From contig CAYLRJ010000033.1 in assembly GCA_964386185.1 (NCBI GenBank), positions 100 to 64,099 on the forward strand: a DNA stretch of 64,000 nucleotides, given 5' to 3'. Below are positions 40,575-63,361 of this stretch, piece by piece. Positions within the stretch are counted from its first letter, which is position 1. Each line of letters opens with the position of its first letter. Position numbers and translations under genes: made by a program. This DNA is from an uncultured Anaerolineaceae bacterium (GTDB taxonomy: Bacteria > Chloroflexota > Anaerolineae > Anaerolineales > DRMV01). The notes beneath the pieces were generated by a model that was not told the DNA's origin, ran no database searches, and saw only the letters and a program-made list of their open reading frames with translations.

Positions 40575-40691
40575 GGGCGATTGCGTCTGCATCGCCCTGG
40601 GCGGTCACCCCCGCCGGCAAACCCCGCGCCACGCGCCTCGGGGCCCAACACCCCGAGGCGGATTTCCCCAGTGATGGGTTTCAAGGTGAGC

Positions 40692-41546
40692 ATGATGCCC
40701 AAAGTGCGCATTGTCACAGATAGCACCGCAGACTTGCCCCCCGCGCTGCTGGCGCGTTACAACATTGACGTTGTCCCGGCTGTGGTGGTGGTCAATGGCC
40801 AGGAACACCTCGACGGCGCGGGCCTCTCGCGAGAGGCGTTTTATCGCCAATTGCCCACCATGTCGCCATTGCCGACCACCGCAGCCCCTTCGGTGGGGAT
40901 GTTTGAGGCCGCGTATGCGCAAGCGCTGGAAAAAGCCGAAGCGGTGGTTGCCGTGCATTGCGCCAGTAGCCTCAGCAGCATTTATCAACACGCGTGCTTG
41001 GCTGCTGAAAAATTTGCGGGGCGGGTTCACGTCGTAGATAGTGGGCAGTTGACCTTGGGCATTGGCTTTCAAGCCCTGGCAGCGGCCGAAGCGGCCGCGC
41101 GGGGCGGCGACGTCGCAGAAGCCTTGGCCGCAGTGGAAGCCATCCGCACCCGCGTGCGTTTGATCGCCATGCTCGACACCCTGGAGTTCCTGCGGCGCAG
41201 TGGGCGGGTTTCGTGGGCCAAAGCCCGTTTGGGCTCATTGTTGCGCATCAAACCTTTTTTGGAAGTGCGCCACGGCGAGGTGTTGAGCCTGCCCGCAGTG
41301 CGCACTCGCAGAAAAGGGTTGGCCCACTTGGCCGAACACCTGCGGGCTTTGGGCCCCTTGGACTATCTGGCCGTTTTGCACACCGGCGCCGAAGACGACG
41401 CGCGCGCTTTGCTCGCCGCGGCCGATACCAGCGCCCTGCGCCTGCAACCGTTGGTGGTGTTTGTGACCACCGTAATTGGCACCCACGTGGGCCCTAACGG
41501 CGTGGGCTTTGTAGCCGTGCCTCGTGAGACCGCCCAGGGGGCATGA
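40692..41546 (+). CDS. degV: DegV-family fatty-acid-binding protein
   Basis: MMPKVRIVTDSTADLP... is a canonical DegV start. SD AAGGTGA precedes it. The ORF-track extension from 40476 was rejected. Confidence 0.85.
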   Translation: MMPKVRIVTDSTADLPPALLARYNIDVVPAVVVVNGQEHLDGAGLSREAFYRQLPTMSPLPTTAAPSVGMFEAAYAQALEKAEAVVAVHCASSLSSIYQHACLAAEKFAGRVHVVDSGQLTLGIGFQALAAAEAAARGGDVAEALAAVEAIRTRVRLIAMLDTLEFLRRSGRVSWAKARLGSLLRIKPFLEVRHGEVLSLPAVRTRRKGLAHLAEHLRALGPLDYLAVLHTGAEDDARALLAAADTSALRLQPLVVFVTTVIGTHVGPNGVGFVAVPRETAQGA

Positions 41547-46753: not shown

Positions 46754-47272
46754 ATGGATATTTTAGAATTAGTGGACCGGCTGGAAGAACTCTTCAACGA
46801 AAGCCGCGCGGTGCCTTTTACGCACAACGTCATCGTGGACGAAGACCGCATGCTGGATATCATTGACCAGATGCGGGTGACCATTCCCGAAGAGGTGCGC
46901 AAAGCGCGGCAGCTGCTCAACCAGCGAGAGCGCATTTTGGCGCAGGCCAAAGAAGAGGCTCGCCGCACCATTCAACTGGCCCAGCAGCAGAAAGAAGAAA
47001 TGCTCCGGCGCGATGCTATCGTGCAGGAAGCCGAAGCCATGGCGGCGGAAATCATCGCCCAGGCCCGTGCCGACGCTGAAGCCATCCGTCGCGAAGCCGA
47101 CGCGTATGCGTTGCAATCGTTGGAACGGCTGGAAATGCAGCTGGAGCGGATGATGGGTGAGGTGCACAACGGCATTGAGGCTTTGCGCCAAACGACTCAA
47201 GCCCCCGCGGCCTCCGCAGAGCCGCGGGCAGACGCGCCGCCAGAGGGTGAAATACCCCCTGCAGAAGGTTGA
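46754..47272 (+). CDS. Coiled-coil protein, hypothetical
   Basis: 172 aa, no TM. The long charged helix QAKEEARRTIQLAQQQKEEMLRRDAIVQEAEAMAAEIIAQARADAE has no motif I can place. Confidence 0.5.
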   Translation: MDILELVDRLEELFNESRAVPFTHNVIVDEDRMLDIIDQMRVTIPEEVRKARQLLNQRERILAQAKEEARRTIQLAQQQKEEMLRRDAIVQEAEAMAAEIIAQARADAEAIRREADAYALQSLERLEMQLERMMGEVHNGIEALRQTTQAPAASAEPRADAPPEGEIPPAEG

Positions 47273-47295
47273 CACGCTGTTGGTTGTGGTATAAT
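47269..47295 (+). promoter_or_regulatory. Promoter of tRNA-Arg(CCG)
   Basis: TTGACA (overlapping the upstream stop codon) - 15 nt - TATAAT with an extended-10 TGG. Ends 11 nt before the tRNA. Confidence 0.55.
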
Positions 47296-47306
47296 AGCCG
47301 CCGCTC

Positions 47307-47378
47307 GCCCCCATAGCTCAGTGGATAGAGCGTCGGCCTCCGGAGCCGAAGACCCGCGTTCGAGTCGCGGTGGGGGCA
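47307..47378 (+). tRNA. tRNA-Arg (anticodon CCG)
   Basis: Acceptor GCCCCCA/TGGGGGC, anticodon arm TCGGC-CTCCGGA-GCCGA, T arm CCGCG-TTCGAGT-CGCGG. Confidence 0.9.
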
Positions 47379-47393
47379 CACGCGAATGTTTTT

Positions 47394-47420
47394 ACCCACG
47401 GTAAAGCCGTGGGTTTTTTG
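47394..47420 (+). terminator. Rho-independent terminator after tRNA-Arg
   Basis: acccacgg-taaag-ccgtgggt followed by TTTTTTG. Confidence 0.8.
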
Positions 47421-47621
47421 TTTGCCCCCTCTTGCCATGCCCCGACTTGGGCTGCGGCAGGTGTGGGAAGCGCTCACTGATACATGGCGCGCTATCGTTT
47501 GGGCTTGGGGCAGGGGTGCTTTCTTAAGGCTTGGTGAGAATCGTGGCAATTTTTTAAAAAACATCGTGTTTTGCCCAACGTTGGGGTACAATAGGCGCTG
47601 TATAAAGAATTACTCTAAATT

Positions 47622-47627
47622 GATAAT
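47622..47627 (+). promoter_or_regulatory. Candidate -10 box GATAAT
   Basis: Lies in an AT-rich island. The ATG at 47636 is 8 nt downstream with no SD. Confidence 0.35.
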
Positions 47628-47635
47628 GTCGTCCC

Positions 47636-49780
47636 ATGAAAATTTTTGCATTGACACCTTCATTAATCTGGTTGGGCGGCTTGTTTTTGGGAATCTTGGC
47701 ATGGTGGGGTGAGCGGGCAGCGGTTTGGGGCTTGCCTCATTGGCAATGTGGGTTGGGGGTGCAGGCCTTGGGGGGGCTCTATATCCTTTGGGAGACTTAC
47801 CGCCATCGCTCGGCCAATCGGCCGACGCCGGACGAGCCTTGTTATCGCACCTTGGGCTTGGCGAACGCGCTCAGTGTGAGCCGTGGGTTGGTGTTGGCGT
47901 GGTTGGCGGGCTTCCTGTGCATTGGGTGGCCTCCAGAGGGATGGCTGCGTTGGATGCCTGGCCTTTTGTTTACCCTTGCCATCTTGGCCGATTTTGCCGA
48001 TGGTTTGTTGGCGCGGCTGACTCGGCGCGGTTCGTTGCTCGGCAAATATTTAGATTTGCACCTTGACAGTTTGGGCGTGCTCATTGCTTCGTTGCTGGTG
48101 GTGCGCTTTGGGCAAATGCCTTGGTGGTTTGCCCTGACCGGTCTTGCGCGCTATCTTTCTTTGGCGGGGGAGGCGTGGCTCAAAAAGCGTGGGGTTGCGT
48201 TGCGTCCCCTGCCGCCCAGTGCCAGCCGCCGCGCCTTTGCCGGCGTGATGATGGGGCTGCTCGCGGCTTTGCTTTACCCCATCTTTCGCCCCCCGGCCAC
48301 CGTAGTGGTGGGCACCTTGTTGTTTGTGCCGTTCATCCTTGGCTTTGGGCGCGATTTCTTAGCGCAGGCAGGGGTGCGCTGGGCTGCGGAAGCCCCCTGG
48401 ATGCGGCTGACGTTTTGGCAGCCGCGCGTGTTGCCAGGGGTGCGGGTGGCTACGGGCGGGCTGGCCATCGCCCTTGGCTGGTTGAGGCCCTTAGGAGCCG
48501 GCGCTGCCCCTTCCGCAGCCTTGGGGGTCTTGGGCGCTTTGGGGTTGCTGTTGGCTGTGGGGGTGCTGCCGCGTTTCACCGGGGCAGCGTTGTTGGCGTG
48601 GCTGGCCGCGCCTTTGGCTGCTGTTGTGACCCAAGGGCCGTTTGTGGTGCTGGCTGCAGGCGCTGCCGTGGCTTTGCTTTGGGGCGGGGGGCGATTTTGC
48701 CTCTGGGCGCCTGACGATTACCTCTTCCTCCATCGGGTGGGGGGCGCATCGGCCGCTTGTTGCGCCAGCGCCCAACGCTGGAAAGACGCCCTCGCCACCC
48801 ACCTCGCTCGCCCGCGCGTGAGGCGGGTGCTCCTCTGGGGGGTGGTGGCGGCTTTGCTGGGGTGGTCTTTGCACAATGTGCCCCTGGATGACCTGTGGCG
48901 CACGGTCACCCACCTCAGCCCGGCTGCTTTGGCCGCGCTCATCGCGTTGAATTTGCTGATTTTGTGGATGTTTGCTGGGCGAGGATGGCTCTTGCTGAGG
49001 GCGTTGGGCTATCGCATCCCTTATCGCCGCCAGGTGGCCTACCGCATCGCCGCGTTTAGCGTCAACTACTTCACGCCTGGCCCGCAATTTGGCGGCGAGC
49101 CGCTGCACATTTCCCTCCTTCACCATCACAGCGGCGTCCCTTGGGAAAGCGCCCTCACCATGGTTGCAGTGGATAAGCTGTTTGAGATGACCGTCAACAC
49201 TGCCTTCCTGCTGATGGGCACGGGCGTGTTGATGAGTATGGATTTGCTCCCCAAGGGCGCACAAAAACCTTTGTTAGGCATTGTGGTGACGCTGGTCCTG
49301 CTGCCCTTGGTTTATTTTGCTTTGTTGGCGCGGGGTTTTTCTCCCGCGCGTGCGTTGGCACAATGGCTGAAACCGCACAAAAAGACGAGCCGGATCGCAC
49401 ATCTCTTGCGCCGTGTAGCCGATGCCGAAACGCAAGCCGGCCGTTTGTTTCGTCAACATCCAAAAGTGATGGTGCAAGCCTTGGGCATTTCGTTGTTCAC
49501 TTGGGCGTTGCTGATTGCGGAATACGCCCTGATGCTCTGGGCAGTGGGTTTGCGCCTGTCGTTTTGGGAAATCATCGCCATCCTCACCGCGGCGCGATGG
49601 GCTTTTCTCTCGCCGACGCCGAGCGGTTTGGGCGCGTTGGAAGCCGGGCAAGTGCTGGCCATGCGAACTTTGGGATACGACCCGGCTTTAGGCATCACGG
49701 TGAGCCTCCTCATCCGAGCTCGCGACATCGTCGTGGGCTTGTTGGGCGTAGGGATCGCCAAGCACTTCTCTGCCGCGTAA
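47636..49780 (+). CDS. Fusion protein: CDP-alcohol phosphatidyltransferase domain + MprF-type flippase-like (LPG-synthase-TM/UPF0104) domain
   Basis: Exact DGx2ARx8Gx3Dx3D motif (DGLLARLTRRGSLLGKYLDLHLD) in the N-terminal third. The C-terminal half is polytopic with ...FAGRGWLLLRALGYRI...FSVNYFTPGPQFGGEPL, typical of the flippase-like family (from memory). Confidence 0.7.
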   Translation: MKIFALTPSLIWLGGLFLGILAWWGERAAVWGLPHWQCGLGVQALGGLYILWETYRHRSANRPTPDEPCYRTLGLANALSVSRGLVLAWLAGFLCIGWPPEGWLRWMPGLLFTLAILADFADGLLARLTRRGSLLGKYLDLHLDSLGVLIASLLVVRFGQMPWWFALTGLARYLSLAGEAWLKKRGVALRPLPPSASRRAFAGVMMGLLAALLYPIFRPPATVVVGTLLFVPFILGFGRDFLAQAGVRWAAEAPWMRLTFWQPRVLPGVRVATGGLAIALGWLRPLGAGAAPSAALGVLGALGLLLAVGVLPRFTGAALLAWLAAPLAAVVTQGPFVVLAAGAAVALLWGGGRFCLWAPDDYLFLHRVGGASAACCASAQRWKDALATHLARPRVRRVLLWGVVAALLGWSLHNVPLDDLWRTVTHLSPAALAALIALNLLILWMFAGRGWLLLRALGYRIPYRRQVAYRIAAFSVNYFTPGPQFGGEPLHISLLHHHSGVPWESALTMVAVDKLFEMTVNTAFLLMGTGVLMSMDLLPKGAQKPLLGIVVTLVLLPLVYFALLARGFSPARALAQWLKPHKKTSRIAHLLRRVADAETQAGRLFRQHPKVMVQALGISLFTWALLIAEYALMLWAVGLRLSFWEIIAILTAARWAFLSPTPSGLGALEAGQVLAMRTLGYDPALGITVSLLIRARDIVVGLLGVGIAKHFSAA

Positions 49781-49824
49781 GCGCTCATCTTTTTGTGGGA
49801 GAATCTTACCCGGGAGTGAGAACC

Positions 49825-50466
49825 ATGACGAACAATCCAGACCTCATTGTCAAACGCATGGTATGCGCCCGCATACCTACGGAAGAGGGCGAGTTTCAAC
49901 TCTGCCTTTACGACAACAACCGAGACGATAAAGAGCACCTTGCCTTGGTGATGGGCGACGTCAGCGGGCCTGACGTGTTGGTGCGCATTCATTCGGAATG
50001 TTTTACCGGTGATGTGCTTGGTTCCCGCCGCTGTGACTGCGGCGACCAATTGCACTACGCCATGAGCCTGATTGCCCGCGAAGGACGAGGGGTGGTGGTC
50101 TATCTTCGGCAGGAAGGCCGAGGCATCGGCCTGTTGGAGAAACTCAAGGCTTACAACCTGCAAGATCAAGGCTACGACACGGTAGAAGCCAACTTGGCCT
50201 TAGGCCACCAGGCCGATGAGCGCGATTACGACCTCGGCGTGGCCATTTTGCGCGACCTTGGGGTGGCGTCTGTCCGTTTGATTACCAACAACCCTTCCAA
50301 AATCAACGCCTTAGAGGAAGCCGGCATGCCCGTGGTGGCTCGGGTGCCGGCTCTGGCGCCCATTCACGAAGACAACGCGGCCTATCTCAAAACCAAGGTG
50401 GAGCGAATGCACCATTTGATTGATTTGGCCGATGTTCACCTCAAGCGCGGCTCTCAAGAGCAATGA
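49825..50466 (+). CDS. ribA: GTP cyclohydrolase II
   Basis: HSECFTGDVLGSRRCDCGDQL zinc motif, YLRQEGRGIGL and KAYNLQDQGYDTVEAN. SD GGGAGTGAG. Confidence 0.9.
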   Translation: MTNNPDLIVKRMVCARIPTEEGEFQLCLYDNNRDDKEHLALVMGDVSGPDVLVRIHSECFTGDVLGSRRCDCGDQLHYAMSLIAREGRGVVVYLRQEGRGIGLLEKLKAYNLQDQGYDTVEANLALGHQADERDYDLGVAILRDLGVASVRLITNNPSKINALEEAGMPVVARVPALAPIHEDNAAYLKTKVERMHHLIDLADVHLKRGSQEQ

Positions 50467-51191
50467 TGATGGCGAGAGACCCGGTAGCGCTCATTCGGGC
50501 GGCGCGTCCTCGGCCACCGTGTCGGCGGCCGCTGGTCACGGTGACCTTTGCCCAAAGTTTAGACGGCAGCATTGCCGTGCGCCGTGGTGAGCGGTTGGTG
50601 CTCAGTGGCCCGGAAACCAAGCATCTCACCCATCGGTTGAGGGCTGCCCACGATGCCATTTTGGTGGGCATCAACACGGTTTTGGCCGACGACCCTCGCC
50701 TGACGGCTCGCCTGGTAGGGGGGCCTCACCCTCGGCCGGTGGTGCTGGATAGCCGCTTGCGCATGCCCGCGCAGGCCCGCTTGTGGGCGCATCCTCAAGG
50801 GGTGATTTTAGCCACCGGCCCCGACGCGCCCCCCCAGCGGGTGGAAGCCCTCACCGCGCGCGGCGCACAGGTGCTCACGCTGCCGCGCCGCGCCGACGGT
50901 TTGGATTTGGAAGCCTTGCTCGTTGCCCTGGCTGAGCACGGTTTGTGTAGCCTGATGGTGGAAGGAGGCGCGCGGGTGCTGGCTTCGTTTTTGCGGCATC
51001 GGCTGGCCGATTGGCTGGTGCTCACCATCACGCCGCATCTCATCGGCGGCGTGCCATCGTTGGCTGCCCCACCCCTCCCGGACCCCGCGCCGCCTTCCGA
51101 GGCCGCACGCTTCCCGGCTTTGGAAGCCTGGCATACCGCGGTCATGGGCCGAGATTTGGTCGTTTGGGGAAGGATACAATGGCCACAATAA
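50463..51191 (+). CDS. Stand-alone RibD C-terminal-type reductase (diaminohydroxyphosphoribosylaminopyrimidine reductase family)
   Basis: VTVTFAQSLDGSIA..., ILVGINTVLADDPRLT and LMVEGGARVL. No deaminase domain. ATGA overlap with the ribA stop. Confidence 0.8.
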   Translation: MMMARDPVALIRAARPRPPCRRPLVTVTFAQSLDGSIAVRRGERLVLSGPETKHLTHRLRAAHDAILVGINTVLADDPRLTARLVGGPHPRPVVLDSRLRMPAQARLWAHPQGVILATGPDAPPQRVEALTARGAQVLTLPRRADGLDLEALLVALAEHGLCSLMVEGGARVLASFLRHRLADWLVLTITPHLIGGVPSLAAPPLPDPAPPSEAARFPALEAWHTAVMGRDLVVWGRIQWPQ

Positions 51192-52225
51192 CCCGAACAG
51201 CCCTCTACTTTACCGCACCTTATCGGGTCGAAGTGCGCACCGAGCGGTTGGATGGCCCTGCCCCAGGGCAGTTGCGGGTGCGGGTGGCCTACTCGGCCAT
51301 CAGCCCAGGCACGGAGATGCTGATTTATCGGGGGCAAATGCCCCAGGGCATGCCCACCGACGCGTCTATCGCGGCCCTGGGCGGCACCTTGGCCTACCCG
51401 CTCAAATATGGCTATGCTACCGTGGGGCAGGTCGAGGCCGTGGGCGACGGCGTGTCGCGGTCTTGGTTGGGGCGTTGGGTGTTTGCTTTCCAGCCCCACC
51501 AGAGCCATTACCTGGCCTCGCCCGACGACGTTTTGCCGTTGCCCGCGGAGGTTTCCCCCGAAGACGCGGCCTTCCTGCCCAACACTGAGACCGCGGTCAA
51601 CTTCGTGATGGATGGCCGCCCAGGGATTGGCGAGCGGGTGGTCGTTTTTGGCCAGGGTATCGTCGGGCTGTTGACCACCGCGTTGTTGGCGCGCTTCCCC
51701 CTGGAGCGCCTCGTGGTGTTAGACCGCTTCCCCCTGCGGCGGGAAACCGGCCTCTCGTTGGGCGCGCATCGGGCTCTGGACCCGGACGCGGCCGATGTAG
51801 CCACCGCGCTGACCGACCTTTTGGGCGCCCCCCAAGGAACGGGCGGCGCCGATTTGGTGTATGAGCTCAGCGGCGCGCCCGCAGCCTTAAACATGGCCAT
51901 CGCTATTACGGGTTTCGATGGCCGGGTTGTGATTGGTTCGTGGTATGGCCAAAAGCGGGCGCCTTTGGATTTGGGCGGCCACTTCCACCGGAGCCGCATG
52001 CGCCTGTTGAGCAGCCAGGTGAGCACTTTGGCCCCCCAACACACCGGCCGCTGGAACAAGGCACGACGCATGGCGTTGGCCTGGCAATCTGTGGCTGCAT
52101 TGCACCCCGCGACGCGCTTTGTGACCCATCGTTTTCCGGCTACGGATGCCCCCGCTGCTTATGCCCACATTGACCAACACCCTGAGTCTACGTTGCAGGT
52201 GCTGTTGACATGGCAAGACGCCTAA
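51179..52225 (+). CDS. Medium-chain dehydrogenase/reductase (MDR) lacking the canonical catalytic-zinc ligands
   Basis: GroES-like and Rossmann parts (VVVFGQGIVGLL). ISPGTEM replaces CGxD and GYATVG replaces GHE. 13-nt overlap with the upstream gene. Confidence 0.7.
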   Translation: MATITRTALYFTAPYRVEVRTERLDGPAPGQLRVRVAYSAISPGTEMLIYRGQMPQGMPTDASIAALGGTLAYPLKYGYATVGQVEAVGDGVSRSWLGRWVFAFQPHQSHYLASPDDVLPLPAEVSPEDAAFLPNTETAVNFVMDGRPGIGERVVVFGQGIVGLLTTALLARFPLERLVVLDRFPLRRETGLSLGAHRALDPDAADVATALTDLLGAPQGTGGADLVYELSGAPAALNMAIAITGFDGRVVIGSWYGQKRAPLDLGGHFHRSRMRLLSSQVSTLAPQHTGRWNKARRMALAWQSVAALHPATRFVTHRFPATDAPAAYAHIDQHPESTLQVLLTWQDA

Positions 52226-52246
52226 ACCCACCCGAGGAGATGCCTT

Positions 52247-52624
52247 ATGTACACCGTTGCCGTACAGCGTGATTTCATTGCCCAACATTATCTGATTGGT
52301 GGCGATTGGGGCCCCGAAAACCAACCCCACGCTCATCACTACAAGGTAGAAGTCCAACTCTCAGGCCCCAGTTTGGACCAACACGGCTATTTGGTAGATA
52401 TTGTGGACATCGAGCGCCGCCTGGACGCATTGGTGCAGCGCTATCGTAACGCCACCCTCAATGCCTTGCCCGAATTTGAAGGGCTCAACCCCAGCATTGA
52501 ACACTTTGCCCGCATCTTCTGCCAGGCCTTTGCCGAAGGTTTGACCCAACCTAACGTCACGCGCCTCACCGTCAAAATTTGGGAAAACGACATCGCGTGG
52601 GCTGCTTATCAAATGGAGCGTTGA
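52247..52624 (+). CDS. 6-pyruvoyl-tetrahydropterin synthase/QueD-like T-fold protein (divergent)
   Basis: 125 aa. By-eye alignment to E. coli QueD: FIAQHYL and PHAHHY keep the three His, and KIWEND keeps the Glu. SD GAGGAG. Confidence 0.7.
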   Translation: MYTVAVQRDFIAQHYLIGGDWGPENQPHAHHYKVEVQLSGPSLDQHGYLVDIVDIERRLDALVQRYRNATLNALPEFEGLNPSIEHFARIFCQAFAEGLTQPNVTRLTVKIWENDIAWAAYQMER

Positions 52625-53754
52625 TGCGGATTGGCCTGGTCATTTACGGCAGTTTAGATACGGTTTCTGGCGGCTATCTGTACGATCGCCATCTGGTGCG
52701 GGTGTTGAGGGCGCGCGGGCATACAGTGCAGGTTGTATCTTTGCCGTGGGAAAGCTATCCGCGGCGGCTGTGGCACAATGTGTTGCCCTCTGTGCGACAG
52801 CGGCTCGCCACCGCGGCGGTGGATCTCTGGCTGCAAGACGAGCTCAACCACCCCTCGCTCTTCTGGCTCAACGCGCAGTTGCGCAAGGTTGTAGCAGCGC
52901 CGGTGGTGTCTATTGTGCATCACCTGCGGAGCGACGAGCGTCACCCCGCGTGGTTGTTGCCGGTTTATCGGGCCGTGGAGCGGCGTTATTTGCGCAGCGT
53001 GGATGGCTTTCTCTGCAACAGCCGCACCACGTGCGCACGCGTTGCCTGGCTGCTTGGCCGCCCGCCGCGGCGAAAATGGGTGGCCTATCCGGCCGCTGAC
53101 CGCTTTGCACCGCGCGGGGTGTTGCCCGTTGCCGAGGAAACCGTCCTGGCCCGCGCCCAACAGCCAGGGCCTTTGCGGGTGCTCTTTGTCGGAAATTTGA
53201 TCCGCCGCAAAGGCTTACCAACCCTGTTGAAGGCCTTGGCGCGTGTGTCGCCGGAAACCGCGGTGTTGGACGTGGTGGGCCGAGAGGATGTGGAGCCCGC
53301 CTACGCCCGCCAGATGCACGCCTTGGCCGACCGTCTGGGGTTGGCCCAGCGGGTGCGCTTTCACGGCTATCAAGACGACGACGGCTTGGCGTCTCTGCTT
53401 CGGCAGGCTCATGTTTTGGCTGTTCCCTCGGAATATGAAGGCTTTGGCATTGTCTATCTCGAAGGGATGGCTTTTGGCCTTCCGGCGCTGGCGGGCAACC
53501 GAGGGGCAGCCCATGAAATCATCACCCCTGGCGAAAACGGCGACTTGTTGCCGCCCCACGACCCAGCCCCTTGGGCTGCTGCCCTGGCTCGTTTGCATCT
53601 GGACCGCGGCCTCTTGGCGCGGATGGGGTTGGCCGCGCAAGCCCGTTTTCGCCGCCACCCCACGTGGGATGAAAGCCTGGGCGCAGCCGAAGCCTGGCTC
53701 CGCCAGTGGGTCGCTCCGTCTTCTTCCCCCTCTTCTTCCCCTGCGTTGCGATGA
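52624..53754 (+). CDS. GT4-family glycosyltransferase
   Basis: MRIGLVIYGSLDTVSGGYLY... and the C-terminal VPSEYEGFGIVYLEGMAFGLPAL (E-x7-E region). TGATG overlap with the upstream stop. Confidence 0.85.
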   Translation: MRIGLVIYGSLDTVSGGYLYDRHLVRVLRARGHTVQVVSLPWESYPRRLWHNVLPSVRQRLATAAVDLWLQDELNHPSLFWLNAQLRKVVAAPVVSIVHHLRSDERHPAWLLPVYRAVERRYLRSVDGFLCNSRTTCARVAWLLGRPPRRKWVAYPAADRFAPRGVLPVAEETVLARAQQPGPLRVLFVGNLIRRKGLPTLLKALARVSPETAVLDVVGREDVEPAYARQMHALADRLGLAQRVRFHGYQDDDGLASLLRQAHVLAVPSEYEGFGIVYLEGMAFGLPALAGNRGAAHEIITPGENGDLLPPHDPAPWAAALARLHLDRGLLARMGLAAQARFRRHPTWDESLGAAEAWLRQWVAPSSSPSSSPALR

Positions 53755-55565
53755 TGACTCGTTTGAAAACTTTATGGCGTTACCTTTCCCCTGCTCGCCA
53801 CCCCAATGTTTGGTTTTGGGGCGTGGCGGCTTTGCTCAACGCGCTGCTCTTTTTGCCTTTTTACCTCACCCAACCCGCGGATCGCAGCCTGCTGCCCTGG
53901 CCCCCCACGCATTATGACTGGCGCGCGTGGTTGGTCTCGCGTGACCAGGCCGACCTGTTGCGTTTCCACGCCGAGTGGGTGCTTGGGCTGGCTTTGTGGG
54001 CGTGGCTGGCGCCGCGGATGCGCCCTCGCGGCCGCCGCTGGTTGGCTGGGGTGATTTCACTGGGCTTTGGCCTGGCCTTGCTCTATCAGATTTACGCCGC
54101 CGTGATGCTCAACCTTTATCACTACACCCCTAATTTTTACAACGATTATCCTTTTATCGTCGGCGGTGTGCAGTTTTTGCTCGATTCCTTGAATTTTTCG
54201 TGGGTGACTTATGCCCTGGGCGGGCTGGCTTTTTTGGCCACACTGGCCAGCATTGTGCTCTTGTTGCGGGTGCTTTTCCATGCTATCCCTGTCGAAGCCT
54301 TGGGACGGGCTACGCGCGGGGCCCTGTTGGCCCTCGCCTTGGCGGTGGGGGGGTATGGGATGGTGTACGGCGTGGGCTTGGCGGATCCTTACATGGAAGT
54401 CAACAGCCTCACCGCGGAAATCGTGGCTAACATCCGCGCCGCGCGGCAGTCCCGCCACGACGTGGCTGGCTTGGCTTCCTTCAACCCTTACGAAACCTAT
54501 GACTACACCCGCTATCGGTTGCAGAGCCACCCCAACGTCTATTTGATTTTTGTGGAATCCTACGGCAGCATCCTCTATACGCGGCCTTTTTATCAGGAGA
54601 CATACCGCACGCTCATGACCGGCTGGCAAGCAAAACTGGAAGCCGCGGGATGGCACACTGCAACCACATTGAGCATCTCGCCCATGTGGGGGGGCGGGTC
54701 GTGGATGGCCTATACCAGCGCCATGTTTGGGCTGCGGATTACCGAGCAACAACAGTTTTTGGCCCTGCGAGAGAAATATCAGTATCTGCCCTATCCAAAT
54801 TTAGGCCGTTATCTACACAGCCAGGGCTACGATTACACCTGGGTCGTGCCGATTACGCGCAAACTGCCCGAAAACATCACCGAGATGAACCGCCGCTTTT
54901 ATGGGGCCGACCGCTGGATTACGTTCAAAGATTTGCACTACACAGGCCCCATGTATGGCTGGGGCCCTTCACCGCCCGATCAATACACTTTGGGGTTCAT
55001 CCGAGACGAGGTCGTGCCTCAAGAGCAAAAGCCCCTGTTCCTGTTTTTCCTGACGCAAAGTTCGCATTACCCTTGGGCGCCCTTGCCGCCGGTGGTGGAC
55101 GATTGGCGGGCTTTGAACCAGTTGCAGATTTCGGGCGGTAGTTTGAGCAAAGAGGAAATGGCCCAATTGTCGTTCACGGCCATCAGGCAAAATTATCTCA
55201 ACGCGATTGTGTATAGCATGGATATGTTGGGCGACTTCCTGCTGCACTTGCCCGACGACGATGCGATCGTCATCCTCATTGGCGACCACCAACCCCCCAC
55301 TGTCTCCGCCCGGCGCGACGGCTACGCCACGCCCATCCATATTTTGAGCCGTGATGCAGCTTTCGTTGCCGATTTTGCGCAATATGGTTTCCGTCCAGGC
55401 CTATGGTTAGACGACCCCCAGCCCACCATGCACCACGAAGGCCTCTATTCAATGTTGGTTCGGCAGTTGGTGGCCCATTATGGCGTAGACCGGACGGATT
55501 TGCCGCCTTATCTGCCGGAAGGGATTGCAATTGCTCCCTCACCCGCGGCTGATGAGGGGCCGTGA
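53751..55565 (+). CDS. Membrane-anchored sulfatase/alkaline-phosphatase-superfamily transferase (LtaS/OpgB/EptA-like)
   Basis: About 6 N-terminal TM segments, then NVYLIFVESYGS, SSHYPWAP and ILIGDHQPP, which are typical of the sulfatase fold. ATGA overlap with the GT4 stop. Confidence 0.65.
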   Translation: MMTRLKTLWRYLSPARHPNVWFWGVAALLNALLFLPFYLTQPADRSLLPWPPTHYDWRAWLVSRDQADLLRFHAEWVLGLALWAWLAPRMRPRGRRWLAGVISLGFGLALLYQIYAAVMLNLYHYTPNFYNDYPFIVGGVQFLLDSLNFSWVTYALGGLAFLATLASIVLLLRVLFHAIPVEALGRATRGALLALALAVGGYGMVYGVGLADPYMEVNSLTAEIVANIRAARQSRHDVAGLASFNPYETYDYTRYRLQSHPNVYLIFVESYGSILYTRPFYQETYRTLMTGWQAKLEAAGWHTATTLSISPMWGGGSWMAYTSAMFGLRITEQQQFLALREKYQYLPYPNLGRYLHSQGYDYTWVVPITRKLPENITEMNRRFYGADRWITFKDLHYTGPMYGWGPSPPDQYTLGFIRDEVVPQEQKPLFLFFLTQSSHYPWAPLPPVVDDWRALNQLQISGGSLSKEEMAQLSFTAIRQNYLNAIVYSMDMLGDFLLHLPDDDAIVILIGDHQPPTVSARRDGYATPIHILSRDAAFVADFAQYGFRPGLWLDDPQPTMHHEGLYSMLVRQLVAHYGVDRTDLPPYLPEGIAIAPSPAADEGP

Positions 55566-55609
55566 GATGTTGTGCTGGCTGCGTCGCAGGGCCTCGGAAC
55601 TGGCCGGGT

Positions 55610-56830
55610 TTATGGCGCTTCTGCCCTTTCGGCGCCGGACGGCGTGGTTTGGGCGTGGCGCCAGGCGACCCACAGCACCCCCCAGAGCACCAAGGGCAAC
55701 AGGAGGTATTCCCAGCGCAGCGGCCGCAACACGCGCCAAAATACCCAGGGAAGCCCGCACACGGCCAGCCCTAACACCCACCCCCAGACCGTGTCGCGAT
55801 GCGCCCACAGCCAAAGCCAAATGACCGGCAGCCCCACCACCGCGGTGTAGTCGCCGGTTTGTGGCCACACCAGCAGAAAAACAGTCCACGCCCCGGCAAA
55901 GAGCCACAGGGTCCAGTGCTTGGCGCGTGTGCGCCACAAGGTGCCCCCCCAATGACCGGCCCAACCTAAAATGCCCAAGGCCACCATCAGACTCCACGGC
56001 CAACCCAAGAGAGCCGGGGGCCAAACCGGTCGGGCATAGTGGCGGTAAGCCCGCAGACCAGCGACGTAGGCGGGTTCCCAAAAACCAATTTGCCAGTGCG
56101 ACCAGCCCCACAGGAGCAGCGCACCTGCCAGCCAGAGCCCGACCACTTTGAGATGCCCTTCACGCCAGGCCACGGCCAAGATGAGCAAAGTGACCGGCAG
56201 AGCCATTTCGGGTTTGACCAGGGTCGCCAAAAGGGCCCCTGCGGCCCAAATAGGATGCCCTTTGTGTAGGCTCCACAATGCAAACAGCGTCCAGAAGAAC
56301 ACCCACGTCGCGAATTGCCCTAAGAGGTAGCCATTGAGAGGGTAGCGGAATATCGCGATGGAGAAGATTTCCAACAGGGCTATTTGGATGGGGGAAGGCC
56401 GCCACCGAAGCAGTTGAGCCCATAAAAGCGGCATGATGAGGAGCATTGTGAGTTGCAGGCCTCCCCACAGGCTGATGGCGATGGTAAAGGGCATCTTCCA
56501 AAAGGGCCAGAGCAAGAGGGCCAAAAAAGGTGCGTAGAGAAAGCGGTGTTGGTCTTCGGTGGGGGGCAGGGTGGTGTGGAACATGCCCTCTTGGATGCGG
56601 CGGGTGGTGGCTTCGGTGTAGGGGGATTGGCCTTGCAGCACGCTGCGCGCGCCGACCCAGCGGGGGTAAAAGTCGAAGCGATGCTCTCGGGGGCGCACCA
56701 CGCCCCAATAGGTAGCCAACGCTAAAATGAGCCATACGCCGCCGAGCACGCCCCCCGCGAGCAAAAATCTACGAATGCGTGAGGCCCGCCACCAAGTGAG
56801 GGAAGCGAAGCGGCTGTTTTTGGACTGCAT
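55610..56830 (-). CDS. GT87/DUF2029-like polytopic glycosyltransferase (PimE-like)
   Basis: 406 aa and polytopic. The first loop FDFYPRWVGARSVLQGQSPY resembles the DUF2029 signature (from memory). Confidence 0.55.
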   Translation of the reverse strand: MQSKNSRFASLTWWRASRIRRFLLAGGVLGGVWLILALATYWGVVRPREHRFDFYPRWVGARSVLQGQSPYTEATTRRIQEGMFHTTLPPTEDQHRFLYAPFLALLLWPFWKMPFTIAISLWGGLQLTMLLIMPLLWAQLLRWRPSPIQIALLEIFSIAIFRYPLNGYLLGQFATWVFFWTLFALWSLHKGHPIWAAGALLATLVKPEMALPVTLLILAVAWREGHLKVVGLWLAGALLLWGWSHWQIGFWEPAYVAGLRAYRHYARPVWPPALLGWPWSLMVALGILGWAGHWGGTLWRTRAKHWTLWLFAGAWTVFLLVWPQTGDYTAVVGLPVIWLWLWAHRDTVWGWVLGLAVCGLPWVFWRVLRPLRWEYLLLPLVLWGVLWVAWRHAQTTPSGAERAEAP

Positions 56831-59165: not shown

Positions 59166-59198
59166 AACTTTGTCCTATCCTCTTTGACGGAAGACGCT

Positions 59199-59816
59199 AT
59201 GGCCAATTGGATTACATTAGCCCGTTTCCCTCTACTTTTTTTGTATATCGCGTTTCTCTACTATGGTGGTTTCAGCCTGCGTTTTTGGAGCGCGCCGTTC
59301 ATTTTGCTCATCATCGCGATGGATAGCGTGGATGGCATTGTGGCGCGCGCCCGCGGCGAAACCAGCCTCTTGGGAAGCGCCCTGGACATTGCAACCGACC
59401 GCACCCTGGAAATCATGCTTTGGGTGGTGTTTGCTCATCTGGGGTTGATTCCCATTGTCGTGCCGTTGATTGTCATCGCGCGGGGCACCACGGTCGACGC
59501 GGTGCGTGCGGTGGGAATGAGCAGCGGCTTGCCCCCCTTTGAACAGGTCAAATCGCCTTTGAGCCGCTTTTTGGTGGCTTCGAAATTCATGCGGAGCACG
59601 TATGGCTTTTTGAAAGCCGCCGCGTTTGTGACGCTGACCCTGGATTTGGCCTTCCGCACCCCAGGCGCGCCTTTGCCCAAAGTGCATGCGCCCTTGCATA
59701 CCGTGGCGTTGACCTTGACGTGGCTGGCTGTGATTTGGTGCTTGGCGCGCGGCATCCCTGTTTTGGTGGAAGGCTACGCCTTGTTGAAAAATCCCCCCCC
59801 GGCCAAAAAAGCATAA
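59199..59816 (+). CDS. CDP-alcohol phosphatidyltransferase
   Basis: Exact motif DGIVARARGETSLLGSALDIATD (DGx2ARx8Gx3Dx3D). About 5 TM segments. Confidence 0.8.
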   Translation: MANWITLARFPLLFLYIAFLYYGGFSLRFWSAPFILLIIAMDSVDGIVARARGETSLLGSALDIATDRTLEIMLWVVFAHLGLIPIVVPLIVIARGTTVDAVRAVGMSSGLPPFEQVKSPLSRFLVASKFMRSTYGFLKAAAFVTLTLDLAFRTPGAPLPKVHAPLHTVALTLTWLAVIWCLARGIPVLVEGYALLKNPPPAKKA

Positions 59817-59890
59817 CCGTGGGGGCATATGGCCCGACCGAGCCTCACGGCGTTGGCGCTCGGTCTCCTCTTTTCGCGCCCTCATAAAGG

Positions 59891-60802
59891 ATGCGCATGG
59901 ATATTCAAGATCTGACAACCAGCCGTTATGGCGTTGCCATTGCCCTGGGCCTGGCCCGAGCGCTGCCCCCGCGCGCGGGCTATCGTGTGGCTCGTCTGTT
60001 GGCAGATACCCTCGCGCTTTTCAAGCGTTCCCGCTTGGTGCAGGCCGTCCGTCTCAATCAGTGGGTCGTGCACGGCATGACGTGGGACGCCAAGCAATTA
60101 GACCAGGCCGTGCACGCCGTGCTCCGTCATGGTGGGCACTGTAATTACGACCTTTACCGCAACCTTCACGATACCGACGCCATCCGTCGTTTGGTGCATT
60201 TAGACGACCGCGTGTTAGAGGCCGTACGTGAGAGCCGAGAAGGCCGGGCGGGCTATGTGGTGGTCGGCCCGCATCTGAGCAACTTCGATTTGGCCATCAA
60301 GGCGGTTGGCATTGCCGGCGTGCGCGCCCAAATTTTGGCCATCGCGACGCCGACCAGCGGCTACTTGTGGCAAAACCGCATGCGCGCCGCCCCAGGGGTG
60401 GATATTACCCCGATTTCTCCACGGGCGTTGCTGCAGGCTGTGGACCGCCTCAAAAACGGTGGGGTCGTGGTCACAGGCGTGGACCGGCCTGTGCCCGGCA
60501 AGAAAGAAATGCTCACTTTCTTTGGCCAGCCCGCGCCTTTGCCCACAGGGCATGTGCGTTTGGCAATGGATGCCAAAGTGCCGGTGCGGGTGGTGTCGGC
60601 GCGCATGGAAGAGGATGGCCGGTATCACGTGACGCTGTCTGAGCGCATTCCCATGCAGCGCACGGGCAATCGGAAAGCCGACATCCGGGAAAACGCCCAG
60701 CGGGTGCTCACTGTGGTGGAGCGCTACATCCGTGAGCGGCCTTTGCAATGGCTGATGTTTTACCCGGTTTGGCCGCATTTGATGGACGAGGTGCCGCGAT
60801 GA
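59891..60802 (+). CDS. LpxL/HtrB/PatA-type lipid acyltransferase
   Basis: HX4D motif GPHLSNFD, about 300 aa, with a family-like C-terminal region PLQWLMFYPVWP. Confidence 0.7.
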   Translation: MRMDIQDLTTSRYGVAIALGLARALPPRAGYRVARLLADTLALFKRSRLVQAVRLNQWVVHGMTWDAKQLDQAVHAVLRHGGHCNYDLYRNLHDTDAIRRLVHLDDRVLEAVRESREGRAGYVVVGPHLSNFDLAIKAVGIAGVRAQILAIATPTSGYLWQNRMRAAPGVDITPISPRALLQAVDRLKNGGVVVTGVDRPVPGKKEMLTFFGQPAPLPTGHVRLAMDAKVPVRVVSARMEEDGRYHVTLSERIPMQRTGNRKADIRENAQRVLTVVERYIRERPLQWLMFYPVWPHLMDEVPR

Positions 60803-61374
60803 CTGTCCTCACCCCGCAGACCTTGGCCGGCGGAGGGGTTGTTTTGTTTGCGTTGGGCTGGCTGCATCGCGTGCCTCGCATTGCCCGTTGGGATGCAAAG
60901 CTCTTTTTGGCCTTGCACAAATCTTTGCGGCGGGCGTTGCCGCTCTTTCGGTGGCTGTGGCATTTGGGGCGGTTGTGGGGGCTTTTGGGCGGTGCTGTGC
61001 TCATTGCTTTGGGTTTGGGATGGCGCAAAGGGCTGGCAGTGGTGATTGCCTATGGTGTGGTGGTGTTGGGTGAAACCACCATCAAGCGCTTGGTGCGCCG
61101 GCCGCGGCCTTATCAGGTGTTGCCCGAGGCGACGATGGGGCAGCCCCTTGAGCCCGTGGATTCTTCCTTCCCCAGCGGCGACGCGTTACGCATTTGGCTG
61201 CTGGCGCTGACGCTGATGGCTTGGTTGCCGCCAGTCTGGACGGTGCCTTTGGTTGTGGTTGCGGTGGCCGTTTCGTTGGGGCGTATTGCCTTGGGCGTCC
61301 ATCACCCCCTGGACGTGATTTCCGGCACGGGGTTGGGCTTCCTCGCAGCCGCCTTGGCGCTGTGGCTGGCTTGA
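60799..61374 (+). CDS. PAP2-family lipid phosphatase
   Basis: Motifs KRLVRRPRP, SFPSGD (Asp in place of the usual His) and GRIALGVHHPLDV. ATGA overlap with the acyltransferase stop. Confidence 0.7.
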   Translation: MTVLTPQTLAGGGVVLFALGWLHRVPRIARWDAKLFLALHKSLRRALPLFRWLWHLGRLWGLLGGAVLIALGLGWRKGLAVVIAYGVVVLGETTIKRLVRRPRPYQVLPEATMGQPLEPVDSSFPSGDALRIWLLALTLMAWLPPVWTVPLVVVAVAVSLGRIALGVHHPLDVISGTGLGFLAAALALWLA

Positions 61375-61381: not shown

Positions 61382-63361
61382 TTAGGGGCGCTGCGGCCGT
61401 TTGTAAACGGCAATGCGTGTGTCTTTGGTTTGACAGGGCCGCAGGGGGATGGTCACTCGGAATTCGACAAAGCCCGCGTCTCGCAGACGGCTTTGCATGG
61501 CAGGGTTGCTGGCCACTTGTTTAGAGAGCAGCACCACGTCGGCTTCTTCCAGCCATTGTTGCGCTAAGGCGTTGTTCCAGTAGCCCCACTGGTACACCGT
61601 CGCAGGATCGCCGCCTTGGCGATAGTTGAAGTGGTCGTTGTATTGCGGGGGGAAGGTGCGCACGTCATACGGCAGGTAAAGCAAGGGGGTGACCGCCTCG
61701 CCGCCTTGCCAATACACGAGGGCATGGGGCGGGATGACGGCAGCTAATTGTTGCCCAATGGTTTGGTGTATGGCCAGCGTGTCTTCCTTGGGGCAGTCAT
61801 AGACGCGGAAGCCGTTGCTGAAGAGTGGGGTAGGCGAGAGCACGCCCAATAACAAAAGCGCGGCTACAAACATCTGGTGTGGCTCGCGCAGCCACTGGCC
61901 AAGGCGGCCGCTCTGCCTGGCACGCCAGAGCCAGATGCTCCCCCCGAGGGCTATCCCGATGGCGAGGATGCCCAACACCACAGCCCCTTGGAACAGTTGA
62001 GGGTCTTGAAACGGTGCAGGCGGGGGGGCGTGCCAAGGCAGGTGCGCGGCCGTCAATGAGCCAAGGCGTTTGGCCAACGCTGCACCGCTGTCGAGCAAGA
62101 CAGATTTGTGAATGACACCCCCGGAAAGTAAAATCGCTATCGTGCTGGCGATTAGGCAGCATTTGGCTCCCAGGTGCGAGGGCAGGGCTTTGCGGTAATA
62201 CAGGGTGATTCCCCCGAGCAGCAAGAAGAGGGGGGCGAAAAAGCTCAAATAAGCCGAGAAGTTGAAAAGCAAGAGGCTGCCGCGGCCAATGGTTGCCCAG
62301 GCATGCACGACCACCAGCGCCCACGTGAGGAGCACCACGGCTTTGAGGATGCGTTGGTGAGGCTGACGCCCCTTTCGCCAGGCCCACGCCAAAAGGGTGG
62401 CGCCAACCAGGCTGAGCCACAGCAGCGGGTAAGTGCTCAAAACGCCAGCCAAGGCGCTGAGGCGTGTTCCTGCCGTGGGAACGCTGGCCACGGCTTGTTG
62501 ACGCCCTAAGCCGCTTGCCGGCATGTGGAACGGAAACCACGGCTGCTTCCGAATGACCTTGGGCAGCCACGGCAGCCACAGCCGCAGGATGTCTGGCCAG
62601 TAGGTGGCATAGACCACCAAAGGCACAATGGCAGCCCCCAACCACGCCCATTTGGCACGCCGCAGGCCATAGGCTTTCCACGTGAAGATGCCAACAAAAA
62701 CCCAAACGAAAATCAGATTGATGCGGGTGACGCTCAGCGTGCCGGCCAGCAGCCCGCCTAAAAACAGCTGCCAATTGCGGGGATGGACGGCGAGCACAAA
62801 AACCAAAGCCCAAATGAGCAACGCCGCCCCCAGCCCTTCGGTCACGGCCAGGCTATACATCCGCTGGAGGGCCGTGGTGGCCGCGGCCATCCACATGACC
62901 AGCGCGGCGGTTTTGGCGTCTGTAAAGCGGCGCAGGAGCACCCACACCCCCGCCAGCGCGAGCAGGCCGCACCCCAGCGAAAAATAGCGCCCTGTATCCA
63001 GCCCCGGATGAGAAAGCCATTGCGCCGCCCCATAAAAGAAAAAGGCCAAAGGCATTTTGTTGGTCCAAGGGCCGTAGGGCTGAAAGGGGCGGTAAACGCC
63101 GCGGATGAACAGCCAACCTTTGTAGAGGTAGGCCCCCTCATCCATGACCACTTCTTGGAAGTGGGCAAAATAAATGGCGCCCGCGGCAAAAGTCGCCCAG
63201 CCCAGCAGGGCGAGCGCATGCCATCGCAGGGCGCGGAGCGGGCGACGCAAAAACAAAGCGTGGAAAACGCGACGTCTGACCGTGTGCATAAGAGGGAAGC
63301 GGGCTTGATTGGGTTGCGCGGCCTGGTGTTTGGCCCAGGCCGCGCGCGGATGAAGCCTCAT
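61382..63361 (-). CDS. GT-C fold polytopic glycosyltransferase (PMT/ArnT-like, GT39/GT83-type)
   Basis: 659 aa with more than 10 TM segments. Has a DE motif in the first loop (VVMDEGAYLYKG) and a soluble C-terminal ~150 aa. ATGA overlap with the yjbQ stop. Confidence 0.6.
   Translation of the reverse strand: MRLHPRAAWAKHQAAQPNQARFPLMHTVRRRVFHALFLRRPLRALRWHALALLGWATFAAGAIYFAHFQEVVMDEGAYLYKGWLFIRGVYRPFQPYGPWTNKMPLAFFFYGAAQWLSHPGLDTGRYFSLGCGLLALAGVWVLLRRFTDAKTAALVMWMAAATTALQRMYSLAVTEGLGAALLIWALVFVLAVHPRNWQLFLGGLLAGTLSVTRINLIFVWVFVGIFTWKAYGLRRAKWAWLGAAIVPLVVYATYWPDILRLWLPWLPKVIRKQPWFPFHMPASGLGRQQAVASVPTAGTRLSALAGVLSTYPLLWLSLVGATLLAWAWRKGRQPHQRILKAVVLLTWALVVVHAWATIGRGSLLLFNFSAYLSFFAPLFLLLGGITLYYRKALPSHLGAKCCLIASTIAILLSGGVIHKSVLLDSGAALAKRLGSLTAAHLPWHAPPPAPFQDPQLFQGAVVLGILAIGIALGGSIWLWRARQSGRLGQWLREPHQMFVAALLLLGVLSPTPLFSNGFRVYDCPKEDTLAIHQTIGQQLAAVIPPHALVYWQGGEAVTPLLYLPYDVRTFPPQYNDHFNYRQGGDPATVYQWGYWNNALAQQWLEEADVVLLSKQVASNPAMQSRLRDAGFVEFRVTIPLRPCQTKDTRIAVYKRPQRP

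Follow-up and report, generated by a model that had tools for sequence, protein, structure and literature searches.

A conserved gene cassette around GTP cyclohydrolase II and a PTPS-like T-fold protein in an Anaerolineaceae contig, and its candidate pathway

Genes, junctions and boundaries of the locus

The stretch of DNA analysed here (the window, 64,000 nucleotides (nt) of contig CAYLRJ010000033.1 from an uncultured Anaerolineaceae bacterium) carries on its + strand a run of tightly packed genes that joins GTP cyclohydrolase II (GCH II, encoded by ribA) and a RibD_C-only reductase to a medium-chain dehydrogenase/reductase (MDR), a T-fold protein resembling 6-pyruvoyltetrahydropterin synthase (PTPS), a family 4 glycosyltransferase (GT4) and a membrane-anchored LtaS-like transferase, preceded by a fusion of a CDP-alcohol phosphatidyltransferase with a flippase-like domain (Table 1). 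A preliminary description, made from the sequence letters, had proposed the six genes from ribA onwards as a unit. The open reading frames (ORFs) and independent gene calls, the latter made on two metagenomic contigs with identical or near-identical copies of the operon proteins, concurred on the coordinates of all seven genes, and Pfam assigned each of the families predicted for the six (GTP_cyclohydro2, RibD_C, ADH_N/ADH_zinc_N, PTPS, Glycos_transf_1 and Sulfatase). The five junctions were read directly and matched those described, namely ATGA at 50463-50466 between ribA and the RibD_C gene, a 13-nt overlap at 51179-51191 (ATGGCCACAATAA) between the RibD_C and MDR genes, a 21-nt spacer holding GAGGAG ahead of 52247 between the MDR and T-fold genes, TGATG at 52622-52626, which indicates translational coupling, between the T-fold and GT4 genes, and ATGA at 53751-53754 between the GT4 and LtaS-like genes.

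Table 1. Features of the locus, with positions in the window and the basis of each assignment
Feature	Position	Strand	Basis
CDP-alcohol phosphatidyltransferase~flippase-like (LPG_synthase_TM) fusion gene	47636..49780	+	Pfam
GTP cyclohydrolase II, stand-alone RibA type	49825..50466	+	Pfam PF00925, TIGR00505
RibD_C-only pyrimidine reductase	50463..51191	+	Pfam PF01872
Zinc-less MDR dehydrogenase, BchC-like	51179..52225	+	ADH_zinc_N and weak ADH_N
PTPS-like T-fold protein	52247..52624	+	Pfam PF01242
GT4 glycosyltransferase	52624..53754	+	Pfam PF00534
Membrane-anchored alkaline-phosphatase-superfamily transferase, LtaS/EptA/GacH type	53751..55565	+	Pfam PF00884, fold
Terminator-like hairpin after tRNA 47307-47378	47394..47414	+	9-bp stem, Rfam tRNA

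The gap between the upstream fusion gene and ribA was confirmed by direct reading to be 44 nt. The claims that it holds neither a flavin mononucleotide (FMN) riboswitch nor a terminator also stood, the former by an Rfam gathering-threshold scan of the whole 64-kb window, which gave only three tRNAs, and the latter by the frequency of terminator-like sites in 47636-55565, which was not above that of shuffled sequence. The strongest terminator-like site in 47200-56200 is the hairpin behind the tRNA, in which six of the nine stem pairs are GC and which is followed by TTTTTTGTTTG; this hairpin is likely the upstream limit of the transcription unit. At the other end, 44 nt separate the last stop codon from a convergent gene. 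Because the convincing terminator lies only upstream of 47636 and a convergent gene lies 3′ of the last stop codon, the transcription unit predicted from the sequence likely comprises all seven genes (47636-55565). The convergent gene (55610-56830, - strand) encodes a 406-aa polytopic membrane protein for which Pfam, NCBIfam and PADLOC gave no match, and which among the fetched loci is present only in an identical contig (L001).

Families and conserved residues of the encoded proteins

RibA matched GTP_cyclohydro2 with an E-value of 1.8e-71 and scored 259.6 bits with the TIGR00505 ribA equivalog model (cutoff 205.85). Its zinc cysteines C59, C70 and C72 and Tyr110 are kept in 40-41 of 41 orthologues, and the Tyr of KLKAYNLQDQGYDT, from which a diaminopyrimidine product had been expected at the outset, is present and kept in 40 of the 41. 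The conversion of GTP by this protein as a GCH II is well supported by these residues and by the family assignment. The RibD_C protein matched PF01872 (E 5e-42) and exceeded the NCBIfam ribD_Cterm domain cutoff (155.4 versus 150.15); its best Protein Data Bank (PDB) relatives include archaeal and fungal 2,5-diamino-6-ribosylamino-pyrimidinone 5′-phosphate reductases, and alignments to solved reductases indicated that it keeps the catalytic Thr, Asp and Glu-Gly-Gly. In this fold one position determines substrate specificity, being Lys151/152 in bacteria, Thr35 in fungi and Asn in archaea; the bacterial Lys (the BsRibG Lys151 position) selects the deaminated substrate, and the position was tested by a T35K swap in yeast RIB7 (PMC3631187). 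The window protein carries Thr28 at this position (BsRibG Lys151 / ScRIB7 Thr35), and the 53 aligned sequences carry S (28), T (12), A (6), N (5) or C (2) and in no case Lys, so that a small residue, as in the fungal (Thr) and archaeal (Asn) reductases of the diamino substrate (PMC3631187), is found throughout. The RibD_C protein is thus predicted to reduce the 2,5-diamino, non-deaminated product of GCH II, and, because a GCH II~RibD_C fusion exists at another locus (L039), it would take that product directly.

The first steps of riboflavin synthesis (steps 1-3, with RibA and RibD, or in the archaeal/fungal Rib7/ArfC order) share with the window the first enzyme and a RibD_C-fold reductase. 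The window differs from that pathway in that Pfam scans of the ORFs in its 64 kb gave no domain of a RibD deaminase, 3,4-dihydroxy-2-butanone 4-phosphate (DHBP) synthase (ribB), lumazine synthase (ribH) or riboflavin synthase (ribE), in agreement with what had been noticed before, in that it has no riboswitch, and in that its two rib-type genes sit among T-fold, GT4, MDR and lipid genes.

The MDR matched ADH_zinc_N (E 1e-11) and marginally ADH_N in Pfam, and its best full-length NCBIfam model was bchC (E 4.9e-19), far under the bchC cutoff. Alignment to 6ie0 bore out the reported loss of the catalytic zinc ligands, with Cys replaced by Ser42, His by Tyr79 and Glu by Ala80. In 63 orthologues the motifs S42-x-G-T-E46 and Y77-G-Y79 do not vary, and the residue following Y-G-Y is A, S, C or M.

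The T-fold protein matched PTPS (E 1e-26), and its AlphaFold2 (AF2) model had a pLDDT of 92.8. Foldseek placed Streptomyces coelicolor SCO6650 (3d7j) first with a TM score of 0.90, followed by QueD and PTPS (0.8-0.9 overall), and SCO6650 was also the best PDB match by sequence (E 3e-9), which agrees with the homologue that the preliminary description had named. The signature H14, E24-x3-H28-x-H30, E113 is strongly conserved in 92 diverse representatives, down to ~35% identity, with H14, E24, H30 and E113 invariant in 81 orthologues; across thousands of Chloroflexota sequences the protein is ~70% identical. It has in common with the PTPS/QueD family (COG0720) the T-fold, the His triad and the ring-anchoring Glu, but it lacks the Cys/Asp/His catalytic triad of PTPS and QueD and is partnered in the genome by GCH II rather than GCH I. 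An invariant Glu24 stands where QueD has its catalytic Cys, and the positions that we take to correspond to the Asp-His of Escherichia coli QueD hold Arg and Asn/Asp. Since the full His triad is retained together with an invariant Glu at the QueD Cys position, the T-fold protein, unlike SCO6650, is probably catalytic. In Plasmodium PTPS, whose E37 catalytic-residue mutants were listed among the Foldseek matches, and in PTPS-III (PMC5041015), a Glu likewise takes the place of the catalytic Cys. The ExxxHxH of the window protein fits none of the three subgroup motifs given there, which are CxxxHGH for PTPS-I, CxxxxxHGH for PTPS-II and ExxHGH for PTPS-III (PMC5041015).

The GT4 protein matched Glycos_transf_1 with an E-value of 1e-33, and its PDB relatives were sucrose-phosphate synthase (SPS), MshA, PimA, PimB′ and the tetrahydrobiopterin (BH4) glucosyltransferase; similarity to the last (5ze7, BGluT) covered the C-terminal donor domain only (E 3e-8) and ranked behind SPS, MshA and PimA. 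A GT4-conflict Pfam match raised anti-phage defence as a candidate function, which was rejected as PADLOC was empty for all eight proteins.

In the upstream fusion protein, the N-terminal half matched CDP-OH_P_transf (PF01066, E 7e-16, residues 75-221) and the C-terminal half LPG_synthase_TM (PF03706, E 4e-38, residues 402-703). The CDP-alcohol transferase half carries the full signature D-x2-D-G-x2-A-R-x8-G-x3-D-x3-D, as DFADGLLARLTRRGSLLGKYLDLHLD, in a polytopic membrane protein. The LtaS-like protein matched Sulfatase (E 2e-10), and phmmer found no PDB relative under E 0.9 by sequence (best E 0.93). Its AF2 model (pLDDT 92) has N-terminal helices to about residue 243 and then an alpha/beta domain, and the top Foldseek matches were LtaP/LtaS, full-length MCR-1 and EptA, GacH, EptC and BcsG, ahead of true sulfatases. 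Model and matches thus agree with the layout of this class, an N-terminal multi-helix membrane domain joined to an extracytoplasmic alkaline-phosphatase fold, and with the LtaS/sulfatase-type membrane transferase originally proposed for the sixth gene. E269 (VESYG), S317 (GGGSW), H439 and D512-H513 (GDHQP) are invariant in 37 homologues; in enzymes of this class a Glu and an Asp-His bind metal and a Ser/Thr is the nucleophile, and E269, S317, D512 and H513 presumably correspond to LtaS E255, T300, D475 and H476, by motif resemblance rather than residue-level superposition. On this model the protein would thus be a divergent head-group transferase acting from a phospholipid to an extracytoplasmic acceptor.

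Two further groups of lipid genes lie elsewhere in the window. A second, separate lipid cluster (59184-61374, +) encodes a CDP-alcohol transferase most like archaetidylinositol/phosphatidylinositol phosphate synthases, a Lip_A_acyltrans protein of the phosphatidylinositol-mannoside acyltransferase type and a PAP2 phosphatase, a layout that recalls the actinobacterial phosphatidylinositol/phosphatidylinositol-mannoside operon. At 39134-41546 (+), the gene for a CMAS protein (cyclopropane-fatty-acyl-phospholipid synthase) that carries DUF7884 at its N-terminus precedes one for a DegV fatty-acid-binding protein, and the two form a lipid-modification pair.

Recurrence of the cassette across genomes

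Synteny was scanned with one genome per species, and the best 80 of 577 confirmed T-fold relatives were kept. Genes were counted by tblastn of the window proteins, the upstream fusion gene being queried as two separate halves, and 49 of the 80 loci, with no less than 7 kb on either flank, formed the well-flanked subset (Table 2). The 80 loci were mostly from Chloroflexota (Anaerolineae, Caldilineaceae, Ardenticatenaceae, Promineifilaceae and Thermoflexus), and several were from Desulfomonile or Desulfobacterales metagenome-assembled genomes (MAGs). The T-fold and GT4 genes were adjacent in 73 of them, with a median gap of 33 nt. GCH II, RibD_C, the zinc-less BchC-like MDR, the PTPS-like T-fold protein and GT4 form a conserved cassette, which is found in three phyla, represented by Chloroflexota, the Desulfomonile/Desulfobacterales MAGs and Streptomyces. 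Because the gene order recurs in dozens of species, the arrangement is far beyond chance.

Table 2. Genes found with the T-fold gene in the synteny scan
Gene	All loci	Well-flanked loci
GT4	73/80	48/49
MDR	62/80	42/49
SAM (S-adenosylmethionine) methyltransferase, directly after GT4	54/80	43/49
RibD_C	53/80	37/49
ribA	41/80	28/49
Flippase-like gene	28/80	20/49
CDP-alcohol transferase	26/80	21/49
Sulfatase-like (LtaS-like) gene	3/80	2/49

The six-gene unit of the preliminary description held as a syntenic group in many genomes and three phyla, but not in its last member, since a methyltransferase is usual where the window has the LtaS-like gene. The methyltransferase is absent from the window, and the LtaS-like gene stands in its place here and in the closest relative (L004). 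The LtaS-like family gave 175 matches which, where named, were from Chloroflexota only. The contexts of four homologues were compared, of which three were linked to the cassette (L004, L085 and L086) and one was not (L087); in the linked loci the gene lies at the 3′ end of the cassette or directly ahead of the CDP-alcohol transferase gene. The LtaS-like gene is therefore a lineage-specific accessory, found in some Chloroflexota lineages only.

The CDP-alcohol transferase and the flippase-like protein are elsewhere encoded by separate adjacent genes beside the cassette (21 of the 49 well-flanked loci), and these lie upstream of it on the same strand or downstream of it in convergent orientation. 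Three independent fusions link the modules of the system: CDP-alcohol transferase~flippase in the window, flippase~GCH II in L086 and GCH II~RibD_C in L039. In L086, positions 8220-10106 form one uninterrupted ORF that joins an LPG_synthase_TM flippase-like domain to GCH II, and an MsrAB gene lies between the CDP-alcohol transferase gene and this fusion. Behind the cassette of L039 (12400-16017), which comes from a Desulfobacterales MAG, lie genes for a HAD phosphatase, an opposite-strand membrane family 2 glycosyltransferase and the GCH II~RibD_C fusion (495 aa). In eight loci (L005, L007, L022, L028, L045, L061, L063 and L065) a small membrane protein of ~120 aa, which has only a faint DUF7475 match and is absent from the window, is encoded between the flippase gene and ribA. 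The system also takes in the CDP-alcohol transferase/flippase gene upstream of ribA.

The Streptomyces locus comprises a divergent CDP-alcohol transferase gene, a zinc-less MDR gene, SCO6650 and an overlapping GT4 gene, and further a weak methyltransferase-like ORF, an LPG_synthase_TM protein, a creatininase-family gene and GCH II. Compared with two such loci (L083 and L084), the window matches the SCO6650-type layout, in which the T-fold gene is flanked by the zinc-less MDR and GT4 genes, with GCH II, CDP-alcohol transferase and flippase-like genes nearby. The GCH II gene (SCO6655 type) that had been placed near SCO6650 is therefore present, together with the MDR, GT4, CDP-alcohol transferase and flippase-like genes. 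The T-fold protein is present in many Streptomyces, and the Streptomyces MDR is 36% identical to that of the window (E 5e-46). Judged by this homologous gene set and by SCO6650 as the top sequence and fold match of the window T-fold protein, the Streptomyces cluster is a homologous system in a third phylum. It differs in that its GCH II has Met where the window RibA has Tyr, in that a creatininase-family gene (L084, 14044-14808, - strand) adjoins its GCH II, and in that it has no LtaS-like gene. In work by Spoonamore and Bandarian, SCO6655 reportedly forms the formamidopyrimidine FAPy, and SCO6650 is said to be without zinc. Archaeal ArfB, the formamide hydrolase that acts after GCH III, belongs to the creatininase family; by analogy, the creatininase-family gene of L084 would fit a route in which FAPy is formed and then deformylated to the same diaminopyrimidine. 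According to a recent review (2026; PMC13151069), the third RibA homologue of S. coelicolor has a function that is not related to the synthesis of flavins.

The open-access literature was searched for this combination of genes, for SCO6648-6655 and for the pairing of COG0720 with GCH II, and no account of a system like this one came up, in accordance with the initial impression that none of this composition had been described.

A candidate pathway and its alternatives

On balance, we favour a dedicated non-riboflavin pathway in which the GCH II product keeps its 2-amino-4-oxo-pyrimidine face and is remodelled, glycosylated and coupled to the membrane. In step 1, which is well supported by the family and the intact catalytic residues, RibA would convert GTP to 2,5-diamino-6-(5-phosphoribosylamino)pyrimidin-4-one. 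In step 2, the RibD_C protein would reduce the ribosyl to a ribityl group without prior deamination, as suggested by the specificity residue, the missing deaminase and the GCH II~RibD_C fusion elsewhere. In step 3, the zinc-less BchC-like MDR might oxidise a secondary alcohol of the side chain, and a 2′-keto intermediate could then close onto the 5-amino group to give a pterin resembling dihydroneopterin phosphate; this step is weakly indicated. In step 4, as the conserved residues suggest, the T-fold protein would bind the ring via Glu113 and work on the side chain with its His3 metal site and Glu24. In step 5, GT4 would add a sugar, after which the SAM methyltransferase would act in most genomes, though not here. 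In step 6, for which family, synteny and fusions argue, the CDP-alcohol phosphatidyltransferase~flippase would link the unit to diacylglycerol phosphate, with CDP-diacylglycerol as donor, and move the lipid to the outer leaflet. In step 7, confined to this lineage, the LtaS/EptA-like enzyme would transfer the phospho-head group from the lipid to an extracytoplasmic acceptor, as indicated by its fold, conserved catalytic residues and synteny, with the transfers from phosphatidylglycerol (PG) to lipoteichoic acid and from phosphatidylethanolamine (PE) to lipid A as precedents. The last two steps would follow the logic of the systems running from PgsA through PG to LtaS/GacH/OpgB and from PE to EptA/MCR-1/BcsG, in which a phospholipid made by a CDP-alcohol transferase gives up its phospho-head group to an envelope acceptor through a membrane-anchored, outward-facing enzyme of the alkaline-phosphatase fold, a likeness backed by the fold. 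The window system would differ from these in its head group, a GTP-derived glycoconjugate, and in its dedicated flippase-like domain, and its LtaS-like member is very divergent and occurs in few lineages. What is shown or strongly supported in this scheme is the GCH II activity, the diamino-type reductase, the conserved multi-phylum cassette and its physical and genetic association with an enzyme that builds phospholipids and with a flippase-like protein. The earlier proposal of a GTP-derived pyrimidine- or pterin-like unit that is glycosylated and placed on a lipid or wall polymer is supported overall, its product and its lipid or wall destination being what we infer.

Several points weigh against the favoured pathway. 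Steps 3-7 are all inferred, the acceptor specificity of GT4 is not readable from sequence, co-transcription is read solely from the gene overlaps and the lack of terminators, and the survey of rib genes is limited to the 64-kb window. The SCO6650 cluster lacks RibD_C, which the window has, and SCO6650 itself lacks E24 and H30, both of which are kept in the window T-fold protein; the chemistry would therefore not be uniform across phyla. Desulfomonile-type loci carry RibD_C, MDR, PTPS, GT4 and methyltransferase genes with no lipid gene within 10 kb, and 28 of the 49 well-flanked loci have no CDP-alcohol transferase/flippase pair within ~10 kb. Because the lipid genes are missing near many loci, the core product may be a soluble metabolite.

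This last point is the substance of the main rival, in which the product is a soluble GTP-derived pterin or pyrimidine glycoside, and the genes for the CDP-alcohol transferase and for the flippase-like and LtaS-like proteins serve the envelope in some other way and are just frequently found next to the cassette. Besides the frequent absence of the lipid pair, it is favoured by the most conserved core of the loci, which is MDR-PTPS-GT4-methyltransferase, by the HAD phosphatase in one of the Desulfomonile/Desulfobacterales loci that have no nearby lipid genes, by the C-terminal similarity of GT4 to the BH4 glucosyltransferase and by the GCH II-derived pyrimidine glucosides of plants (bioRxiv 10.1101/2020.02.26.966523). 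Pterin glycosides (made with cyanobacterial BGluT/PgtA and Chlorobium PGT) and plant vicine are indeed GTP-derived heterocycles that receive a sugar, and vicine starts from GCH II (bioRxiv 10.1101/2020.02.26.966523), as the window cassette would. The known pterin glycosides, however, start from GCH I and a canonical PTPS, whereas the window has GCH II and a T-fold protein without the PTPS triad; BGluT shares the GT-B donor domain with the window GT4, which is nearer to MshA, PimA and SPS; and the known routes have no CDP-alcohol transferase, flippase or LtaS-like enzyme. The lipid pair, moreover, recurs by the cassette in two orientations in Chloroflexota and also in Streptomyces, the LtaS-like gene lies by the cassette at different positions in different genomes, and the flippase~GCH II fusion of L086 and the fusion in the window are hard to explain without a functional link. 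A soluble glycoside is for these reasons considered rather unlikely, and membrane coupling is retained as the preferred reading.

Less probable still is a specialised cofactor or secondary metabolite (deazaflavin/F420-related, or an antibiotic) that is not an envelope component. Actinomycetota and Chloroflexota are known users of F420, and the Streptomyces cluster has been regarded as encoding a cryptic pathway. In addition, PMC5041015 mentions unpublished work according to which the PTPS-IV subgroup of COG0720 acts in F420 synthesis. However, no FO synthase or CofC/D/E-type genes were found in or near the cassettes examined, the deaminase for the uracil intermediate needed in FO synthesis is missing, and known F420 chemistry has no place for a GT4, a CDP-alcohol transferase, a flippase-like or an LtaS-like protein; the F420 link prompted by the PTPS-IV remark was rejected, as F420 genes do not accompany the cassette. 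Given the ~70% identity of the T-fold protein across Chloroflexota and its presence in many Streptomyces, a role in core physiology fits better than a strain-specific antibiotic. Ordinary riboflavin biosynthesis, in which ribA and a split ribD reductase would serve flavins and lie by chance among envelope genes, is highly improbable even though both proteins exceed their ribA equivalog and ribD_Cterm domain cutoffs, because the 64 kb hold no FMN riboswitch, deaminase, ribB, ribE or ribH, the substrate-selecting bacterial Lys is absent from the window reductase and its 52 aligned orthologues, synteny with the T-fold, GT4 and MDR genes is strict across phyla and the S. coelicolor counterpart is reported to be unrelated to flavin synthesis (review PMC13151069); a housekeeping riboflavin operon was accordingly rejected on riboswitch, gene content, specificity residue and synteny, as the preliminary description had concluded.

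Three other regions of the window may be mentioned. A multihaem cytochrome with matches to seven-haem and MtrC/MtrF-like domains adjoins a NapC/NirT-type tetrahaem quinol dehydrogenase (29734-31655, - strand), a pair that may serve electron transfer outside the cell or in the periplasm. The region 10073-14784 (+) encodes, one after another, three TadE/TadG-like pilus-associated proteins (224, 502 and 831 aa), of which the two large ones are unusually long for the family. A 659-aa ORF at 61382-63361 (-) has a high GC content at third codon positions and no Pfam match at E ≤1e-4.

For the biology of these bacteria, we tentatively propose that the favoured pathway yields a new class of membrane lipid in Chloroflexota, many Streptomyces and possibly some Desulfobacterota, although this extension is doubtful compared with the pathway itself. 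A pterin or ribitylaminopyrimidine, glycosylated and in most cases methylated, would form the head group of this lipid and would be made from GTP by a GCH II route that does not depend on GCH I; after flipping to the outside, the lipid would in some lineages serve as donor for the LtaS-like enzyme, which would decorate an envelope polymer with a nitrogen-rich, redox- or UV-active group. If this is true, GTP would feed a new branch of envelope or lipid chemistry, both in Streptomyces and in the Anaerolineae and their relatives, which are very abundant in the environment, and a pterin-like or diaminopyrimidine group at the surface would represent a new kind of redox-active or light-absorbing envelope component. 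It would also give a function to T-fold and zinc-less MDR subfamilies that are now mis-annotated as QueD and alcohol dehydrogenase, and would explain the orphans SCO6650 and SCO6655, two proteins studied biochemically and structurally but not yet placed in a pathway. As a homologous cluster sits in the genetically tractable S. coelicolor, the question is directly testable.

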